DNA of 64,000 bases from Gammaproteobacteria bacterium (GTDB lineage Bacteria > Pseudomonadota > Gammaproteobacteria > GCA-001735895). The stretch is taken from assembly GCA_050306135.1 (NCBI GenBank), contig JBNLGQ010000112.1, positions 67,794 through 131,793 on the forward strand. Direction: 5' to 3'. How positions within the stretch are numbered: the first letter of the stretch is position 1; each line of letters begins with the position of its first letter. Positions 6,030 through 63,977 of this stretch are shown here, one piece after another. Below the pieces are notes generated by a model that was not told where the DNA came from, ran no database searches, and was given only the letters and a program-made list of their open reading frames with translations. Position numbers and translations under genes: made by a program.

Positions 6030-6158
6030 TTGTCGACAATATAAGCAATATTTAACTAAATATCCACCATTGTTAGGCTATATTGTCGACAAAAGTTAAG
6101 TATGAATACTTATATATAGAGAACTTTTTGCGTTTATTGACACATTTTAAAAGATATT

Positions 6159-6293
6159 AACCACAGAGGGCACAGAGAACACGGAGAATGATGAGTTTGG
6201 TTATCTATCGCTACTTATCATTTTGATAAATCGAATCGATGCAGTTCCAAAAAAACCTGAATACCTCTGTGCTCTCCGTGTCCTCTGTGGTTA
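6159..6293. repeat. palindromic CACRGAG nonamer-array repeat, copy 2
   Basis: Arms aaccacagag-ggcacagag-aacacggag and cctctgtgc-tctccgtgt-cctctgtgg enclose a loop of about 75 bp. Lies in the divergent promoter region between the GntR gene and the GNAT gene. Confidence 0.8.
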
Positions 6294-6334
6294 AACTCTT
6301 TTAACGATGGAAAAATGTTCGAGCAAAAAAGCCT

Positions 6335-6796: not shown

Positions 6797-6837
6797 TCGT
6801 ATTTTTGTTCATTATTGGTAGTAGTAACTTCCTGGAC

Positions 6838-7880
6838 AGTTGTTTCACACGCCTTAGCTTTTCTTGCTTCGTAGTGTCTAACGAGTAGGCGTGCGAGTGG
6901 CTTTCTTTTGCGCGAAAAGAAAGTCACCAAAGAAAGCGCGCCCCTCAATCCCTTGATTATTCCGGGCTTCCTGCCCTCCACCCTTCGGGCCACACTGTGT
7001 GCGTTCAAAAATGTTCCTGACATTTTTGTCGTCAAAATGGCGCGGGCTTGAAAGGGGAGTTACTGCAGTCTGCTAACATAGTTACTATTTAATTTACTAT
7101 TGTGGTTTAAAGAGATATGGAAATAATTGATATTAGAGAAGCTGTATTAACTGATGTAGATGATTTACAGGAACTTTATGCTCATGTGGATCAAATACAT
7201 CATGACGAATATCCCGAAATATTTAAACCATCAATTAACATCAATAGACCTGCCTCATTTTTTGAAGGAATCTTTTCTGATGACAATATAAAGTTTCTTG
7301 TAGCATGTATTGATAATCAAATTATCGGTTTTATTCATGCGGAATTAAAAAAGGCAAATCACCCTGTGTTACAAGATTACTCTTATGGGCACATATCAGA
7401 TATTGTTATTAGGCCAGATCACAAAAGAACAGGAGTAGGAAGTAAGCTTTTTAAATCAATTGAGAAGTGGTTTAAAGAAAATGAAGTTAAAGAAATAAGC
7501 CTTACCGTATTTAGTTTTATTGAAGAGGCTATAGCTTTTTATAAAAAAACAGGCTTTACCAATAGACATTGTACAATGACTAAAAATGTCGAAGTCTTTT
7601 AACGCCCTTATTGAGTGCCGATTGTGAGTCATTTTGCAGGGTCAGCGCACACGGACGTCCGCTGAGGATCGTTGAGCAGGAGCGAATCTGTTCGTGGCGT
7701 TATTGCCAGGGATGGCGGAAGTGCTGGGAATGCAGGAGCAATTCCCAGTGAAAAGGAGCTCGCACGCCTGTTAGAAAGACACTACGAAGCAAGAAAAGCT
7801 AAGGCGTGTGAAACAACAATCCGGTAAGGTGCAAGCGTAAATAAGATCGCCGCGCTAACGCTCGCGATGACAGGAAAAAA
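6838..7880. repeat. composite repeat element E1 with terminal inverted repeats of about 60 bp (GTTTCACACGC...GCGTGTGAAAC) carrying a GNAT cargo gene
   Basis: The left TIR (6842-6903) is the reverse complement of the right TIR (7750-7812) at about 57 of 62 positions. Internal conserved blocks P (6838-7062) and Q (7606-7812) match element E2 at 40766-41520. The GNAT gene sits where E2 has a 150 bp AT-rich spacer. Confidence 0.75.
7117..7602 (+). CDS. GNAT family N-acetyltransferase (cargo of repeat element E1, low GC)
   Basis: 161 aa. Motif RPDHKRTGVGSKLF. AT-rich relative to the flanking sequence. Confidence 0.7.
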   Translation: MEIIDIREAVLTDVDDLQELYAHVDQIHHDEYPEIFKPSININRPASFFEGIFSDDNIKFLVACIDNQIIGFIHAELKKANHPVLQDYSYGHISDIVIRPDHKRTGVGSKLFKSIEKWFKENEVKEISLTVFSFIEEAIAFYKKTGFTNRHCTMTKNVEVF

Positions 7881-7886
7881 ACAAAA

Positions 7887-8040
7887 ATGCTACTCAACTA
7901 CATAGAACCCGTATTCCGCCCCCCAGTAAGGCTAAATCAATCATTCTACAAGTAACAAACGGTGCTCCTGGAACTAATGTAAATTCTGCGATATGTATAG
8001 CGATGAAAAAAATGCTTCGTCCAAAATCTATAGCGAACTA
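7887..8040 (+). pseudogene. frameshifted 5' remnant of the radical SAM gene (degenerate duplicate of 10335-10490)
   Basis: The first 34 nt are identical to the start of the 10335 gene (atgctactcaactacatagaacccgtattccgcc). Then about 75% identity with a 1-nt deletion, giving MLLNYIEPVFRPPVRLNQSFYK*. The upstream 70 bp is also duplicated (7813-7886 versus 10236-10334). Confidence 0.7.
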
Positions 8041-9374
8041 AAGATATTCCCAGATAGTTTTAATAATAAATCCTTATCAGGCATATTTTTTAGTGTATTA
8101 ACAATTAGAGCATAATTACTTGATTGAATAAGTACTGATTTTTCCTTAGATACATATCTCAAATTTGATGTCTTGTCATGAGTATTTGTAGTGGTTTCGG
8201 TTGTAAATTTAGTCTTCCAACTTTGTGCTATTTTTGAAATAAAGTCTCTACTTTTATCCTCATCACCCATATCTAATAAGAGAATAAAGAAAGAATAATC
8301 ATCAAAGTCATAATAATTTTCATCAGAGAGATTGAAAAGCTTAAGTGTCAGTGACTGATAATATGGTGGCGATTTTTTTGGATAAGTCACTTTTATACCA
8401 GTTAATGATTTTATAGCTGCTAACACCCTTGGCGGTGAATATACATCATAATGATATATATATTCTTCATCCGAAAATTCATTTTTCAGGGTCGATAGTC
8501 CAACCATCATCTGATCTGCAGTTTTAAACGTGTTGTTAACAAGGTCTTTATTCTCAGGATATAAGATAAGCATTGCAGAGTTAGATAACTCAGATAATCT
8601 ACGCGGCATAGGATCAATTCCTTGAGACTTTTTATATTTTTCTGCAATATATTTTTTTCCTAGATGATATTTAAATCGCAGTTCCTGTTTATATAACTTA
8701 GATAATTTTTTCTTAGACGTACTTTCATTATCGTTTTTTTCAGGCTTTTGTTTTGATCCTTTATCTAGAATTTCATAGCCTTCTTCACAGCCATATTCTT
8801 TACATAGCTTTTCAGTGAGATATTCAGAATTTCCTTCTAGTAGCGCGCTGAGTAATTCACTTTGACCAGGTCGATAAATGTCATCATTCATGTTGGCTGG
8901 AAATTTTTCAAAATCAGCTGCATGAACAAATTCATGAATAAATAAAGCCTCGTAAATTTGTTTAGCGACATCAGGATCTTTTAAATCATAAGAATATGCA
9001 ATTTCTAGTTCTTCAGGATTAATAAAAATTGTTTTTATATTATCTTTATACTTACCAAGAACATTTTCCGATGAAGCAGCTGAGGAAGCATCGGATAAAA
9101 GCCGTGCATAAAATGGATGATTAATCATCATTTTATATTCATCATACGCATCTTTATAGGTAAGACGTTTTAGCCGGTATTTATCGGCCAGCTCCCATCG
9201 CACATGGCTAAGATCAACTTGAAGTTCTTTTTCTACAGCATTTCTAGATAATTCGGCTGTAACCCTAAGATTTACCTTGTGTTGATATACACTTTTGAAA
9301 TCGTGAGTAGCACAAGAAGTAATTAGAAATGAAGTTAAGAATAAGATAACCCCACTAGCTTTTCTGATCTTCAT
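8028..9374 (-). CDS. lipoprotein with HExxH zinc-metallopeptidase-like motif (unknown family)
   Basis: 448 aa. Signal peptide plus lipobox (LITSC). HEFVH motif followed downstream by Glu (LLEGNSEY). K/E-rich, low-GC gene that overlaps its upstream partner by 20 nt. Confidence 0.55.
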   Translation of the reverse strand: MKIRKASGVILFLTSFLITSCATHDFKSVYQHKVNLRVTAELSRNAVEKELQVDLSHVRWELADKYRLKRLTYKDAYDEYKMMINHPFYARLLSDASSAASSENVLGKYKDNIKTIFINPEELEIAYSYDLKDPDVAKQIYEALFIHEFVHAADFEKFPANMNDDIYRPGQSELLSALLEGNSEYLTEKLCKEYGCEEGYEILDKGSKQKPEKNDNESTSKKKLSKLYKQELRFKYHLGKKYIAEKYKKSQGIDPMPRRLSELSNSAMLILYPENKDLVNNTFKTADQMMVGLSTLKNEFSDEEYIYHYDVYSPPRVLAAIKSLTGIKVTYPKKSPPYYQSLTLKLFNLSDENYYDFDDYSFFILLLDMGDEDKSRDFISKIAQSWKTKFTTETTTNTHDKTSNLRYVSKEKSVLIQSSNYALIVNTLKNMPDKDLLLKLSGNIFSSL

Positions 9375-10020
9375 TTATGTTCTTTAATTCTTCAAGGTGA
9401 GGGTTGATTGAAATCTTACCTGCTTTGATATCCCCAATAAAACCATTCAGAACAACGTCAGATAACGAGCTAGAGTCATAATTGCATAGATAACCAGTAA
9501 TTTTTGCATCTCCTTTCACATCGAATATTGATGCACCTCCAGAAACATAGTCATAAGATAGGCCAGTAAAATCTCGATATCTTCGAAAGTAGTGGCAATT
9601 GGCATCTTCCAAAGTAAATGGAACAATGGAAATATATTCTACTTTTTTAGGCATTTTATTAATAACTTTAGTTATAATTTTTTCTTTTCCTGTTGATAAA
9701 ACCCTATCTTCAAAAGATTCTTGAATTAAATCTTCAACCGTTGATTCGTTAAGAAATATATAATTATCTAAAAGGTAGGTATAGGAAACAAAGAAATCGA
9801 TGGTTCTTTTTTTATTTATCCAACGGGATGACTCGTAATAATACTGATTCTGTTTTACCTGTTTATAACCATTTACAAATTTTAAATCCAGACTATTTTT
9901 AGGTATAGATACTACTAGAGTAGTTGGTTCTTTTAGTTGACCCTCTAGTGGTACGGTTTGACATGATGCCTGTAAAATTATTGAGATTATTAAAATCAAC
10001 GAAGAAAGGGCTTTTAGCAT
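9355..10020 (-). CDS. lipoprotein of unknown function (first gene of the low-GC two-gene islet)
   Basis: 221 aa. Signal peptide plus lipobox (LQASC). No recognisable domain. Preceded by a 280 bp AT-rich leader. Confidence 0.5.
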   Translation of the reverse strand: MLKALSSLILIISIILQASCQTVPLEGQLKEPTTLVVSIPKNSLDLKFVNGYKQVKQNQYYYESSRWINKKRTIDFFVSYTYLLDNYIFLNESTVEDLIQESFEDRVLSTGKEKIITKVINKMPKKVEYISIVPFTLEDANCHYFRRYRDFTGLSYDYVSGGASIFDVKGDAKITGYLCNYDSSSLSDVVLNGFIGDIKAGKISINPHLEELKNINEDQKS

Positions 10021-10334
10021 AATATTTTGATTTATGTACTACAAAAGGGTCGCTATATTACTAAAGGCAACACTTATATATAATGAGCAATAAACGATTA
10101 TAATTGTAGGGTTCTTCCTACATAAACTAGAAATGAAGTAAGTTCCTATGTATAACAATTGATAAAAATACAAAATAAATCATTTCTAGATACAGAATAA
10201 TGTAGATTAATCGATCCAAATGTTTAAATATTCAGAAATACATCAGCAATCCGGTAAGGTGTAAACCTAAATAAAATCACCGCGCAAAGTTAATACCTTT
10301 GGGTATTTGCGATGACAGGTATAACAAAATATAT

Positions 10335-11222
10335 ATGCTACTCAACTACATAGAACCCGTATTCCGCCCTCCCAGTGAGGCTGAATCACTCATCCTGCAG
10401 GTAACAAACGGTTGCTCCTGGAACCAGTGCACCTTCTGCGATATGTACACCGATGAGCAGAAAAAATTCCGCCCAAAATCCATCGAAAACATCCGCAAGG
10501 AACTCGCTTATGTTGCATCATCAAACTACCCTCTGCGACGGGTATTCCTCGCTGACGGCGATGCAATGACCTTATCATTCCGTCGTCTGCTGGAAATTAT
10601 GCAGGCGATCAATGAATACCTGCCAGATATACAGCGTGTGTCTGCCTATTGCCTGCCCCGTAATATCAAAAATAAAACGATCGATGAATTAACGCAATTA
10701 CGCGAGCTGGGTCTGAGTCTGGTTTATGTGGGCTGCGAGACCGGTGATGATTTAATCCTGGAGAAAATCAGTAAGGGTGAAACCTGGCAAAGCTCACTTG
10801 ATGCTTTATTGAAGCTGGGTGAAGCAGGTATCAAACGCTCAGTCATGATTCTTAATGGTCTGGGAGGTACCCGATATACTGAACAGCATGCCCTGAATTC
10901 AGCGAGTTTGATGAATGAATCTCAACCAGAATATCTGGCTACTCTGGTGGTCACTTTTTATAAAGGGCCAGAGCGATTCCAACAGGGCTTTGGCGGTGAG
11001 TTTACAGCTCTCAATCAGCTGCAACTGGCAAAAGAAATGAAAATGTTGATAGAGTCCTTGTCGCTGGATAAGACCATATTCCGCAGCGATCATGCATCTA
11101 ATTATCTGATCCTTAAGGGTGTATTAAATAAAGACAGGGATAAACTCCTGGGCTTACTGGATAAGGCAATTAATCAACCGGGTTCCGTACCACTTAGACC
11201 GGAATGGCAAAGAGGTCTCTAA
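10335..11222 (+). CDS. radical SAM protein with noncanonical CX4CX2C cluster motif
   Basis: From the DNA: GTA ACA AAC GGT TGC TCC TGG AAC CAG TGC ACC TTC TGC translates to VTNGCSWNQCTFC. A glycine-rich SAM motif follows downstream. ATG start at 10335; the track's start at 10299 is a TTG. Confidence 0.65.
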   Translation: MLLNYIEPVFRPPSEAESLILQVTNGCSWNQCTFCDMYTDEQKKFRPKSIENIRKELAYVASSNYPLRRVFLADGDAMTLSFRRLLEIMQAINEYLPDIQRVSAYCLPRNIKNKTIDELTQLRELGLSLVYVGCETGDDLILEKISKGETWQSSLDALLKLGEAGIKRSVMILNGLGGTRYTEQHALNSASLMNESQPEYLATLVVTFYKGPERFQQGFGGEFTALNQLQLAKEMKMLIESLSLDKTIFRSDHASNYLILKGVLNKDRDKLLGLLDKAINQPGSVPLRPEWQRGL

Positions 11223-39472: not shown

Positions 39473-39590
39473 CTCACCACAGAGTACACAGAGATCACAG
39501 AGGTTAAAACGTCCATCTTTTAGTTTCAGAAGATTTCTAAAGTATCAAAACATGTTGATAATCAGTTTAAATTCTCCTCTCTGTGGTGAG
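39473..39590. repeat. palindromic CACRGAG nonamer-array repeat, copy 3
   Basis: ctcaccacagag-tacacagag-atcacagagg, a 70 bp loop, then cctctctgtggtgag. Lies between the convergent Rieske and qor genes. Confidence 0.75.
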
Positions 39591-40617: not shown

Positions 40618-40765
40618 GGTGGCTCTCCTCTTTTTGAGGAAGATAATTTAACCTTTTTTTGTTTTGTGTGCTTTGGTTTTTTGAAGAGGGTGTAGCTTAA
40701 ATTTGATAGTGTCATTGTGAAGGTAGTAAAACTACCTTTTAACAATAGCTAATTCCCGGATAATG

Positions 40766-41520
40766 GTTTCACACGCAATGCTTTCCTTACTCCGTAGCCA
40801 ATGACGAGTACGCGTGCTAGTGGCTTTCTTTTGCGCGAAAAGAAAGTCACCAAAGAAAGCGCGCCCCTCAATCCCTTCATCGTCAAAATGGCATCCAGAG
40901 CGCGGTCGGCTCAGACGCGGGTCCAACCGCGCTGAGCCTCAAATGACATCCTTGTCATTTGACCCCACTCTGAATGCCATTTTGCCGCGGGCTTGAAAGG
41001 GGGATATAAAGGAACTTCTTATCTCCGTTAACATAAAAGTATGTCATAACTCTATCTAATCAATAATAAAGAATATCCAAAGAAATGGTTAATAAATGGC
41101 CAATAGCAAATGTATAACACGTTATTTTTTACTGCCAGTTAACCATAGCGCTTTCCCATTGCCCTTATTGAGTGCCGATTGTGAGTCATTTTGTAGGGTC
41201 AGCGCACACGGACGTGCGCTGAGGACAGTCGAGCATGGATGCGAGTCTGGCCGTGGCGTTATTGCCAGGGATGTCATGTATGCAGAAAATGCAGGAGCAA
41301 TTTTCTGTTCAAAATGGCTTAATTTTCGGGAAGCCGCTGGCCACTCAATTGGGATGTCCTTTTTTTCGTCTCTTTTTGTGGACAAGCAAAAGAAAGCCAC
41401 TCGCACGCGTACCCGTCATTGGCTACGGAGTAAGGAAAGCATTGCGTGTGAAACAGTAATCCGGTCAGTTGCTAACCTTTTAAAGATTGCAGCGATAAAG
41501 CTCGCAATGACATTATCGAC
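40766..41520. repeat. composite repeat element E2 with terminal inverted repeats of about 62 bp, no cargo
   Basis: The TIRs at 40766-40827 and 41395-41456 are reverse complements, with 2 mismatches. Internal P and Q blocks are homologous to E1 (ggctttcttttgcgcgaaaagaaagtcaccaaagaaagcgcgcccctcaatccctt, and cccttattgagtgccgattgtgagtcattttg-agggtcagcgcacacggacgt). The flanking R block aatccggt-ag-tg also matches. Confidence 0.75.
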
Positions 41521-41539: not shown

Positions 41540-42247
41540 TCACTCCACCAACTCAATAATTATCCGCCTATTCTGCTTCCCCTTCTTCTCAATCTTCTTA
41601 ACCCTGACCGCCCCAATCTCATTTGAATTCGCAACATGCGTCCCACCACAAGGCTGCAAATCCACTCCCTCAAAATTAACCAGTCTCACCTTACCATGCC
41701 CCATCGGGGGCTTAACACTCATGGTGCGAATCAACTCTGGTTGCGCTTCCATTTCTGCATCACTGATCCATTGCATAGTCATCGGATGATCTGCTGTGGT
41801 GATATCATTCAGGGCCTGCTCAATCGCCAGCTTGTCCGGCGGCTCAGGTAAATCAAAATCCAGCCGTGCAGTGCCGTCATCACGGATGCTGCCGCCAGTC
41901 ACCGGCTCGGGTATCACAGCACATAACATATGCATACAACTATGTAATCGCATAATCTGATAGCGTCGATCCCAGTCTATGCTTAGTGTCAGCTGTTCGC
42001 CTATCTCGGGCAGGTTATCGCCTTCAACCTGATGTAATATCTCAGCACTTTCTCTATCCTTGATGGTATTGATGATTTTTATTTCCGAGTGATCAGGACG
42101 CAGCATAATTCCACTGTCTCCTGGCTGTCCACCGCCTACTGGGTAGAATACGGTTTGGTCAACGATAATATGGCCATCCTGAATGCCAGTTACCTTTGAT
42201 GTACATTGTTTGAGATAACCATCTTCTCGAAATAATTCTAGAGTCAT
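41540..42247 (-). CDS. AlaX-like alanyl-tRNA editing protein (tRNA synthetase second additional domain, SAD)
   Basis: 235 aa. HSCMHMLC...CGGTH zinc-binding editing-domain motifs (HxxxH...CxxxH). Confidence 0.7.
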   Translation of the reverse strand: MTLELFREDGYLKQCTSKVTGIQDGHIIVDQTVFYPVGGGQPGDSGIMLRPDHSEIKIINTIKDRESAEILHQVEGDNLPEIGEQLTLSIDWDRRYQIMRLHSCMHMLCAVIPEPVTGGSIRDDGTARLDFDLPEPPDKLAIEQALNDITTADHPMTMQWISDAEMEAQPELIRTMSVKPPMGHGKVRLVNFEGVDLQPCGGTHVANSNEIGAVRVKKIEKKGKQNRRIIIELVE

Positions 42248-60510: not shown

Positions 60511-61611
60511 CTACAGGCGCATGGGCATCACTACATATCTAAATTGATTAGAGTCTGGAGTGGTAATTACACAGCTACTGTTGGAATCTTTCAATTTAAT
60601 CAAAACCTGTTCTGAATCCAGTACCGATAATACATCGAGTAAGTAGGTCACATTGAACCCAATTTCCAGGGTCGATTCATCAAAATCTACGGTTATCTCT
60701 TCTTCTGCTTCTTCTCGATCAGGGTTATTAGCCTGAATTGAAAGATTATTTTCTCCAAGCGTTAAACGAATCCCTCTATATTTTTCATTCGATAAAATTG
60801 AGATCCTGTGTAATGACTGCTTTAACAGATCCCTGTTTACACTCAGGGTTTTATTTCCATCTAGCGGTATAACCCTGTTGTAATCAGGAAATTTTCCATC
60901 GATCAATTTTGAAGTAAAAGTAAACTGTTTTGTTTCTACACGGATATGATTATTACTGATTTTAACTTCTGCAATTTCGTCCGTGTTGGACAGTAATCTG
61001 GCTAACTCAAGAATTCCCTTGCGAGGAATAATGATCTGCTCCTCTGTGGTTATATTATTTTCACTTTCATATTCACTTAAAGCAAGCCTGTGCCCATCAG
61101 TGGCAACAAGACGCAAAAAGTCTTTACTGAGTTCCATCAATAAGCCATTCAGATAATACCGAACATCCTGCTGTGCCATTGCAAAAGCTGTTTTATCTAT
61201 TAACAGCTTGAGATTCTTTTGTGGAATCTCAAAGGTGAGTTTAGCTTCGATATCTTCAGTACCCGGAAAATCCTTTCCAGGCAGAGAGGATAGGATAAAA
61301 CGAGATCTCGCCGAAGTAAGCGTGACCTGATTATCTTCTATATTAAACTTGATTTCGCTTTTATCAGGTAGCGCTTTACAGATATCGAGTAGTTTTCTGG
61401 CCGGCAATGTGGTGAGAATATCTTCATTAATCGGAATATCCAGATGAGTTATTAATTCTATCTCAAGATCGGTAGCCGTAAGGGAAAGATTCCCATTGTT
61501 GGATTGAAATAAAACATTCCCCAAAATAGGTAAGGTTTGTTTACGTTCTACCGCTCCTATCACCTGTTGAAGAGGATTGAGCAAGTCTTCTCTATTAATA
61601 ACAATATTCAT
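60511..61611 (-). CDS. dnaN: DNA polymerase III beta sliding clamp
   Basis: 366 aa three-domain clamp. N-terminus and length are typical. Confidence 0.95.
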   Translation of the reverse strand: MNIVINREDLLNPLQQVIGAVERKQTLPILGNVLFQSNNGNLSLTATDLEIELITHLDIPINEDILTTLPARKLLDICKALPDKSEIKFNIEDNQVTLTSARSRFILSSLPGKDFPGTEDIEAKLTFEIPQKNLKLLIDKTAFAMAQQDVRYYLNGLLMELSKDFLRLVATDGHRLALSEYESENNITTEEQIIIPRKGILELARLLSNTDEIAEVKISNNHIRVETKQFTFTSKLIDGKFPDYNRVIPLDGNKTLSVNRDLLKQSLHRISILSNEKYRGIRLTLGENNLSIQANNPDREEAEEEITVDFDESTLEIGFNVTYLLDVLSVLDSEQVLIKLKDSNSSCVITTPDSNQFRYVVMPMRL

Positions 61612-63608: not shown

Positions 63609-63977
63609 ATGATTCAAAAGACCGGGGAATCGTTTTCCAGGTCATCCAGGTTGACCAGTGCCGCTGATTTTCAACCGGTATTTCAGGATAATTTTCGAAT
63701 TGGCGATGACTGTTTCACTATTCTTGTTTGCAGAAAAAAAGGCAGTTGTGCAAGGCTGGGGTTCGCTATCGCCAAAAAACAGCTTAAACGAGCTGTAGAT
63801 AGAAATCGTATAAAACGGTTAATACGCGAAAGCTTTCGCCACAACCTAAAAGATTTACCGGATCATGATCTAGTAGTTATGGTACGCTTCAAAATTCTGA
63901 GTTTAAGCAATCCTGAAATATTTACTCGATTAAGTAAGCACTGGTCCAGCGTCCAAAGAAAATGCGAAAACTGCTAA
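63609..63977 (+). CDS. rnpA: ribonuclease P protein component
   Basis: 122 aa, basic. RNR-like motif KKQLKRAVDRNRIKRLIRE. Immediately follows rpmH. Confidence 0.9.
   Translation: MIQKTGESFSRSSRLTSAADFQPVFQDNFRIGDDCFTILVCRKKGSCARLGFAIAKKQLKRAVDRNRIKRLIRESFRHNLKDLPDHDLVVMVRFKILSLSNPEIFTRLSKHWSSVQRKCENC

Follow-up and report, generated by a model that had tools for sequence, protein, structure and literature searches.

In a 64,000-nucleotide (nt) stretch of contig JBNLGQ010000112.1 (positions 67,794 to 131,793; gammaproteobacterial assembly GCA_050306135.1; hereafter the window), the intergenic DNA between qor and alaX contains an element, E2, that on balance we interpret as a gene-less member of an apparently undescribed family of modular fold-back repeats. 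The family would combine features of REPINs (pairs of repetitive extragenic palindromic (REP) sequences that form hairpins) with those of gene-carrying miniature inverted-repeat transposable elements (MITEs), and would also serve as a substrate for recombination. E2 extends from approximately 40710 to 41512, opening with TGTCATTGTG... and closing with ...CGCAATGACA, and its two halves are inverted around an empty gene slot. The parts are as follows.

40710..40765, minus strand: left R extension (R*), TGTCATTGTG-hairpin(AAGGTAG/CTACCTT)-..ACAATAGCTAATTCCCGGATAATGG; ~95 nt upstream of the qor start codon.
40766..40820, minus strand: left arm, 55 nt, with the invariant blocks GTTTCACACGC / CGTAG / GAGTACGCGTGC.AG, from a 21-arm alignment.
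40822..40851, no strand: pyrimidine/purine hairpin GGCTTTCTTTT-GCGCG-AAAAGAAAGTCACC, read from the sequence; covarying versions in L005-L012 (related loci are cited by L numbers).
40852..41004, minus strand: P domain, with P1 (AAAGAAAGCGCGCCCCTCAATCCC), a three-way junction (40881-40987) and the slot-boundary motif GCCGCGGGCTTGAAAGGGGG.
41005..41160, no strand: empty gene slot; its first ~45 nt (..TCTCCGTTAACATA..) are homologous to the slot start in E1 (see below), L019 and L021.
41161..41362, plus strand (by symmetry with the P half only): Q domain, with a sharp start at GCCCTTATTGAGTGCC.
41363..41399, no strand: T-rich tract and right pyrimidine/purine hairpin, CTCTTTTT..AAAAGAAAGCC, read from the sequence.
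41400..41454, plus strand: right arm, CTCGCACGC...CTACGGAG...GCGTGTGAAAC, from the repeat search and the arm alignment.
41455..41512, plus strand: right R extension, AGTAATCCGGTCAGTTGCTAACCTTTTAAAGATTGC-AGCGATAAAGCTC-GCAATGACA; 27 nt from the alaX stop codon.

A repeat search of the window recovered the inverted arms around E2 at 40746-40834 and 41386-41474 (89 nt, 90% complementary), with 97% complementarity between left and right arm over 65 nt. The initial annotation had placed the element at 40766-41520; the element is real, with its left end at 40710, in an inverted R, and its right end at 41512. On the left, the inverted repeat reaches outward to 40746, past GTTTCACACGC, and the R found there is diverged (40710-40765, TGTCATTGTG...CCGGATAATGG, with TGTCATTGTGA matched at 40710). 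Pairwise similarity between the left and right R of E2 is weak (z = 1.4-2.1); the left R was recognised because of its family motifs, its position and an orthologous stand-alone R unit (...CACAATGAACA) located upstream of qor in L027 and L028. Orthologues of the right R are the alaX-proximal R units (R′) of L015, L021 and L029.

The same architecture is present in a second, gene-carrying copy within the window.

~6842..7872, plus strand: E1, comprising arms, P, an open reading frame (ORF) of the GNAT family, Q and R.

The repeat search placed the inverted arms of E1 at 6828-6904 and 7752-7828 (77 nt, 84%). From left to right, E1 consists of a degenerate left R (~6800-6841), the left arm (6842-6897), P (to ~7078), the GNAT ORF (7117-7602), Q (7604-7757), the right arm (7759-7814) and R (7815-7872); its P carries the M module and has the three-way junction deleted. 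The ORF in the slot encodes a 161-amino-acid GNAT protein (Pfam Acetyltransf_1, E = 9e-18), and L003 is 100% identical to part of E1. Pairwise alignments gave the same module order in E2 (arms, P, Q), and the repeat search matched the P sides (6857-6957 with 40780-40880; 101 nt, 89% identity) and the Q sides (7604-7678 with 41161-41235, 75 nt, 93%; continuing at 7682-7754 with 41241-41313, 73 nt, 77%). E2 is thus a gene-less copy of the E1 architecture, as the initial annotation had proposed, with a 156-nt AT-rich spacer (41005-41160) in place of the GNAT ORF. No credible ORF was found inside E2: those listed traverse conserved non-coding modules, and the longest (176 amino acids, across Q, arm and R) matched itself alone among 5.8 billion proteins. 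The slot borders are sharp (..GCGGGCTTGAAAGG(GG) on one side and CGCCCTTATTGAGTGCC.. on the other, also written GGGCTTGAAAGG and CGCCCTTATTGAG), and they are the same when the slot is empty (E2), holds the GNAT gene (E1) or holds other genes (L004, L021).

The ends of the element lie ~55 bases outside the obvious inverted repeats, with R forming the outermost ~55 nt of each half. Exactly three perfect matches to AATCCGGTNAGNTG occur in the window, all at three R sites (E1 R, E2 R and a block at 10244-10317), and a motif search of the window found no stand-alone R beyond them. Local alignments with 1000 shuffles placed the similarity of these blocks far above chance (z = 16.4 for E1 R against E2 R, with 41/55 positions identical; z = 17.4 for E1 R against the third block; z = 5.3 for the third block against E2 R). 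In related genomes the R extension follows the arm at at least 12 ends in at least 8 loci, in constant register. A consensus drawn from at least 20 arm ends of related loci, set in one orientation, reads GCGTGTGAAAC-n3-AATCCGG-n-AGTTGCTA-n-C..AAAGATTGC-(12 to ~70 nt)-GCAATGACA, and an inverted R is present at the left ends of E2, L015, L019, L021, L024, L004 and L006. Because R keeps a fixed register with the arm and is inverted at the two ends, we take the R-block to be the real terminus of the element and not a target site. The proposal that the copied unit extends beyond the right terminal inverted repeat is therefore upheld. The stem of the terminal hairpin within R covaries and GACA always follows it: ATTGC/GCAAT at E2 R and the left ends of L015 and L021, ATCGC/GCGAT at E1 R, ATTAC/GTAAT at the right ends of L015 and L004, and ATTGT/ACAAT at the left end of E2. 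Inverted termini begin TGTCAT and finish ATGACA, giving the paired ends TGTCATYGCGAG.

Read from the centre outward, each half-unit comprises a P or Q domain, the pyrimidine/purine hairpin, the 55-nt arm and an R with its terminal hairpin and GACA; in minimal family members the pyrimidine/purine hairpin is the apex of the arm stem. The arms share the invariant blocks CTCGCACGC..CTACG..GCGTGTGAAAC, separated by variable blocks that differ between E1 and E2 and match within each element. Each arm can also fold on itself through an invariant UCGCACGC/GCGUGUGA stem, in which one adjacent pair switches between C-G and G.U. Mismatches between the arms are not biased towards wobble pairs, and the arm-arm stem is therefore uninformative as to strand.

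The core of P forms a three-way junction of 44 consensus pairs, 11 of them with compensatory changes among six distinct copies that include GC-rich ones. Paired cells amount to 98.1% in the junction compared with 91.4% in shuffles (0/500 reached the observed value), and pairing falls to 34-42% when the partners are slid by 1-3 columns. Cells that are not Watson-Crick pairs comprise 16 G.U on the minus strand versus 2 A.C, and a covariance model scored P at 103-123 bits on the outward (minus) strand versus 33-46 on the other (model R1 in E2: 123 bits minus strand, 46 plus strand). These models point to a P domain that would fold as a single strand, on the strand read outward from the slot. Q contains two hairpins with compensatory changes in three copies, which in E2 are CAGCGCAC/GTGCGCTG and CAGAAAAT/ATTTTCTG, the latter covarying with CTGGGAAT/ATTCCCAG of E1. 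A plus-strand advantage in the folding energy of Q was rejected as strand evidence by a shuffle control, and the strand of Q is left unassigned because the asymmetry is compositional. The P model matched the Q region of L004 weakly on the outward strand (28 bits, E ~0.003), which hints at a common origin of P and Q as diverged inverted paralogues.

Searches of the window with Rfam models produced no match at gathering thresholds and nothing credible at relaxed thresholds. The model TwoAYGGAY scored 29.2 bits at 41200-41253, against a threshold of 43, from the hairpin loops ACGGAC and AUGGAU; the match was taken as chance because these loops are not kept in E1 or L004. Scans of E1 and E2 for sigma-70 promoters and terminators returned results at or below chance. 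By eye only, and not relied on here, TATGTT is seen ~30 nt upstream of P on the minus strand in E1, E2 and L021 (TATGTA in L019).

An exact 21-mer from Q recovered at least 4 loci in one-genome-per-species collections, each in a metagenome-assembled genome (MAG) labelled Gammaproteobacteria apart from one probable case of mis-binning, and the arm pattern recovered at least 8 metagenome contigs of 48-56% GC; across all family loci GC ranges from 42% to 56%. At least 5 element-bearing contigs came from a single metagenome. A blastn search with E2 against plasmid and phage collections and an arm-pattern scan of viral contigs gave no match, and a full-text literature search for the invariant motifs returned unrelated eukaryotic primer sequences only. 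The nearest named AlaX is that of Motiliproteus coralliicola (70% identity). From these searches the family seems to occur only in a clade of uncultured gammaproteobacteria; it is recognised by no database used here. Copies are intergenic, lie beside unrelated housekeeping genes and are often at contig ends; the contigs of L029 and L030, near-identical strains, end inside an arm or hairpin. The window holds two copies within 64 kb, and another contig of the same MAG carries one remnant. The minimal member, in L011 (1038-1182), has arms only and measures 145 nt; L008 carries a version of 320 nt, and L004 a multi-unit array in which several right-hand units accompany four genes. On the minus strand of L004 (480-5540), this array begins with two tandem long R units, a left arm with an insertion and P, continues with three genes of unassigned function and an inverted P unit, and finishes with three right-hand units in succession, a MarR-HATPase-DUF4325 gene lying between these units.

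The history of E1 and E2 was traced in contigs encoding AlaX orthologues of 85-93% identity. In four sister lineages (L015/L016, L017/L018, L021 and L022/L023), alaX and a radical S-adenosylmethionine (radical-SAM) gene are adjacent with the element between them. The order in L015/L016 is PhaC-SDR-AlaX-(~500-nt element)-radical SAM-LysE-radical SAM-Memo-AMMECR1. On the alaX side of L015, the alaX stop codon is followed by TGTCATTGCGAGCGCTAGCGTGGCAATC... (R′), an E2-type arm and a P that is 97.6% identical to that of E2; next come a terminator-like hairpin, a decayed Q and arm, ...AATCCAGTAAGGTGC..CTCGTAATGACA (R), and the GG..ATG of the radical-SAM gene. L021 and L022/L023 have R′ after alaX and a decayed R before the radical-SAM gene, and L017/L018 retain a decayed right arm and R before the radical-SAM gene only, with no R′ after alaX. 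Because sister genomes join alaX and the radical-SAM gene by one element, this comparison shows E2 R (on the alaX side) and E1 R (on the side of a radical-SAM fragment) as the two ends of one old element. The DNA between E1 and the intact radical-SAM gene contains three further features.

7888..8030, plus strand: frameshifted 5′ fragment of the radical-SAM gene, duplicated with the R of E1; 84-90% identical to 10335-10480.
8028..10020, minus strand: two AT-rich genes of 448 and 221 amino acids, with orthologues between alaX and the radical-SAM gene in L021 and L022.
10244..10317, plus strand: third R-block, directly upstream of the intact radical-SAM gene (10335-11222); the version closest to L022.

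The two AT-rich genes (31-32% GC) encode lipoprotein-like N-termini and matched no Pfam family; their orthologues in L021 and L022 occupy the ancestral element's slot. The third R-block is part of a ~216 bp duplication that takes in the radical-SAM leader together with ~150 nt from the 5′ end of the gene; it is a second, allele-like version of the ancestral right end and not an independent element end. The leader of the 7888-8030 fragment resembles those of L015 and L017, and the leader of the intact gene resembles that of L022, which suggests that an allele from a relative may have been inserted along with the two AT-rich genes. The three R-blocks that the initial annotation grouped together are thus genuinely similar, but as opposite ends of one ancestral element plus a duplicated end and not as three products of one copying process. 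In L017 (10709-15936) the alaX-side half has been replaced by ~5 kb of AT-rich DNA with glycosyltransferase and LPG-synthase genes; the alaX/radical-SAM locus is a foreign-DNA hotspot.

In the window, alaX (41540-42247, minus strand) and the intact radical-SAM gene (plus strand) lie ~30 kb apart in opposite orientations, and the segment between them has E2 at one junction and E1 at the other. Plus-strand GC skew is positive from ~6 to 40 kb and negative on both sides, flipping at E1 and E2, and the cumulative skew rises from ~6 kb to ~38 kb and falls elsewhere; in L015, L021 and L022 the alaX and radical-SAM sides have the same skew sign (+0.05 to +0.08). The separation of the two ends and the skew flips directly support the conclusion that the element copies mark the breakpoints of a ~30-kb inversion running from the radical-SAM gene to qor. 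Since rnpA lies at the right edge of the window (63609-63977), the replication origin would be nearby, just beyond the window, and the inverted segment would run against its replichore. We infer that the copies themselves caused inversions through recombination. Further events are needed to account for the present arrangement. Oxaloacetate decarboxylase genes, not alaX, precede qor in L026-L028; the left flank thus calls for at least one more inversion. P adjoins alaX in L015, L019, L021 and L024 and Q does so in the window, so the interior of E2 has also flipped; such a flip is plausible because the two arms of E2 are 97% identical over 65 nt. As in inversions mediated by copies of insertion sequences, by rRNA operons or by other inverted repeats, one repeat occupies both junctions and GC skew is discontinuous there; unlike in those cases the repeat is palindromic, so that either orientation can recombine and the interior can flip.

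How the copies reached unrelated loci is a separate matter. One possibility, which we put forward tentatively, is that the family spread as a non-autonomous, hairpin-ended element without target duplication, mobilised in trans by an HUH-type enzyme whose gene a master copy carries. The enzyme would recognise strand-specific single-strand hairpins, by a logic like that of REP/REPIN sequences and their REP-associated tyrosine transposases (RAYTs) or of IS200/IS605, and the master copy would hold the enzyme's gene in its slot. The long inverted repeats would additionally act as recombination substrates, through which the interior of E2 flips and the segment from the radical-SAM gene to qor inverts. 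Among modes of movement the HUH type is the most likely because covarying hairpin ends, a fixed tetranucleotide, the lack of target duplication and REPIN-like arms occur together. Target duplications were sought at E2, L015 and L011 and none was found; no direct repeat flanks the intact L015 copy (..GTCGATGA before TGTC...GACA and GGAAAAAA.. after it). The copies are old, so a short target duplication could have decayed. The proposed readings, including those considered below, are not mutually exclusive.

The resemblance to REPINs and to bacterial interspersed mosaic elements is extensive. Both consist of two inverted, hairpin-forming units in a symmetric organisation, both have invariant blocks separated by stretches that keep only their pairing, and both are intergenic, without target duplications and of long persistence in a lineage; the 145-nt member in L011 has exactly the REPIN shape, and a CTAC/GTAG motif is conserved inside each arm. 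REPINs are described with the same symmetry of conserved blocks and compensated variable stretches (PMC3116915) and with long vertical persistence (bioRxiv 10.1101/2021.07.10.451892). The family differs in its half-units of ~330 nt, compared with ~25-50 nt in REPINs, in its extra structured domains (P, Q and M) and gene-holding slot, in the few copies seen per genome, and in the position of GTAG, which is in the arm loop here and 5′ of the REP stem there. Nor was a RAYT-type gene found in the window or the neighbourhoods examined.

Several observations weigh against the favoured interpretation. Neither a mobilising enzyme nor an autonomous relative was found in ~280 kb of related loci: no transposase, integrase or recombinase Pfam family is present in the window or the annotated neighbourhoods of relatives, although xerD happens to adjoin the element in L006. 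The master copy is hypothetical because only this ~280 kb of related DNA was examined. Copy number appears low, with 2-3 seen per genome, in contrast to typical populations of REPINs or MITEs; the alaX copy has been kept at one locus across lineages with AlaX 85-100% identical; and no fresh insertion with a matching empty site occurs among the loci compared, so that the dispersal of copies to unrelated loci is the sole basis for mobility. The strand evidence for P comes from six P sequences and ~7 columns with G.U, and the strand difference in the folding energy of Q is reproduced by shuffled sequences. Finally, at least two inversions and the interior flip are needed, which could have come about in more than one order, and the 97.6% identity of E2 P to the alaX-proximal P of L015 fits some event orders better than others.

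It is unlikely, in our view, that the family consists of classical MITEs, or mobile insertion cassettes (MICs) when a gene is carried, in which a DDE transposase encoded elsewhere recognises compound 5′-TGT...ACA-3′ ends and P and Q are passenger DNA. Several features are those of such elements, comparable ones being described in PMC5444012 and PMC4133298: the inverted termini read TGTCAT/ATGACA, arms such as the 89-nt, 90% complementary pair enclose a short stretch that encodes no transposase, the family includes members with and without a gene, deletion derivatives and nested modules occur, and copies dispersed in intergenic DNA break assemblies. The qnrS2 MIC of Aeromonas plasmids and the Tn3-derived inverted-repeat miniature elements (TIMEs) are likewise bounded by inverted repeats and without a transposase of their own. 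The absence of a target-site duplication at the intact L015 copy argues against this explanation, as does the absence of a related autonomous element or known parent insertion sequence from the ~280 kb of related loci. In addition, a DDE enzyme would require neither the compensatory changes nor the conserved fold of P, the terminal hairpin stem covaries rather than keeping its sequence, and the inverted repeats, unlike those of MITEs and MICs, are hundreds of bases long, modular and structured; the apparently low copy number and the long retention of the alaX copy also argue against it.

A doubtful alternative is that the half-units are functional RNA modules (terminators, stabilisers, leaders or small RNAs), transcribed outward from the slot and kept at particular loci by selection. 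The inverted-repeat appearance would then be a by-product of divergent RNA genes, and spread would occur by recombination, not transposition. The compensatory changes and one-strand G.U excess of P favour such modules, as do the conservation of structure between AT-rich and GC-rich lineages, the persistence of the alaX copy and the terminator-like hairpin that follows the end of P in L015, L004 and L024. Moreover, in L015, L017 and the window 15-22 nt separate the end of R from the start codon of the radical-SAM gene, which must therefore have its promoter or leader within the element. Against this, the modules have no Rfam family, the promoter and terminator scans were at chance level, the strand evidence for Q is compositional, copies face their flanking genes both ways (~6 sense, 6-7 convergent), and the presence of copies at many unrelated loci across genomes would still need a means of moving. 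A comparable role is considered for the ERIC sequences of enterobacteria and the Correia elements of Neisseria, imperfect, transcribed intergenic palindromes with size variants from internal indels at fixed points; like the elements described here, they may work as hairpins in RNA or provide neighbouring genes with outward promoters or leaders. The present family is unrelated to them in sequence, exceeds them in size and is set apart by its gene slot and by terminal hairpins with the conserved GACA.

We regard it as improbable, though worth stating, that the half-units are strand-specific folded docking sites of an undescribed gene-capture system. A structure-specific single-strand enzyme would insert accessory genes at the fixed slot, or between array units as in L004, and the units would also supply transcription signals to captured and neighbouring genes; the parallel with integrons would be one of function, with unrelated parts. 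That the family is an integron-type cassette system proper, its half-units being attC-like folded recombination sites downstream of captured genes, is very improbable. Strand-specific folding, cargo typical of chromosomal cassettes (GNATs and other promoter-poor accessory genes, and small AT-rich ORFs without an assigned function) and the L004 array, in which genes are separated by units in the same orientation, are shared with integrons. However, the attC identity was rejected because core sites are absent: no RYYYAAC/GTTRRRY site occurs at unit or slot borders, and the arm ends GTGAAAC/GTTTCAC do not fit. The units, at ~330 nt, are larger than attC sites, which measure 55-141 nt; they are inverted around the slot, not direct, and no integrase is present in the annotated neighbourhoods. 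Finally, it is scarcely credible that arm-bounded elements insert into R as a conserved target sequence in the chromosome, the other option raised by the initial annotation: although R-only units exist after alaX (L022) and before qor (L027), and re-insertion could account for the way in which element cores have been exchanged against their R flanks in the window, the R-only units are truncated remnants, the only arm-less R seen, that sit exactly where sister genomes carry full element ends, and the fixed register, the inversion at both ends and the restriction of R to three sites in the window are contrary to it.

The reading of E2 as a gene-less, REPIN-like and MITE-like fold-back repeat thus accommodates a feature set (half-units of several hundred bases, structured domains, terminal hairpins, a gene slot and inversion junctions) that exceeds what is known of MITEs, MICs and REPINs, in a family that is still of the general kind of non-autonomous palindromic repeats. 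The analysis defines real boundaries and a modular anatomy for a repeat family unrecognised by the databases used, and explains the flank similarity as shared ancestry of two element ends. It also provides a concrete case of a palindromic repeat at the junctions of an intra-replichore inversion near the replication origin. Should a function be demonstrated for the structured P and Q domains and the fixed gene slot, this family could become a useful model, set in uncultured marine-type gammaproteobacteria, for how hairpin repeats acquire genes and regulatory roles.

Other repeats were observed within or near the elements. A ~72-nt sub-module (TTATTCCGGGC..CCCTTCGGGCC..CAAAATTGTTCCAGACAATTTTG) occurs in L004 (5160-5090 and 5079-5010), L024 (10940-11076) and the window (6955-7028), in both orientations and at varied positions within elements; its terminal hairpin covaries, and the sub-module may move on its own as a mini-repeat. 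In L005 (20-110), on the slot side, REP-like palindromes (GTCATTCCGGCGCAGGCCGGAATCC and an inverted partner) represent a different repeat family nested beside the element. A second, unrelated family of intergenic inverted repeats with CACAGAG-like heptads is found in the window at 2637-2731, 6147-6304, 39473-39503 and 61040-61065, the copy at 6147-6304 having 40-nt arms 78 nt apart.

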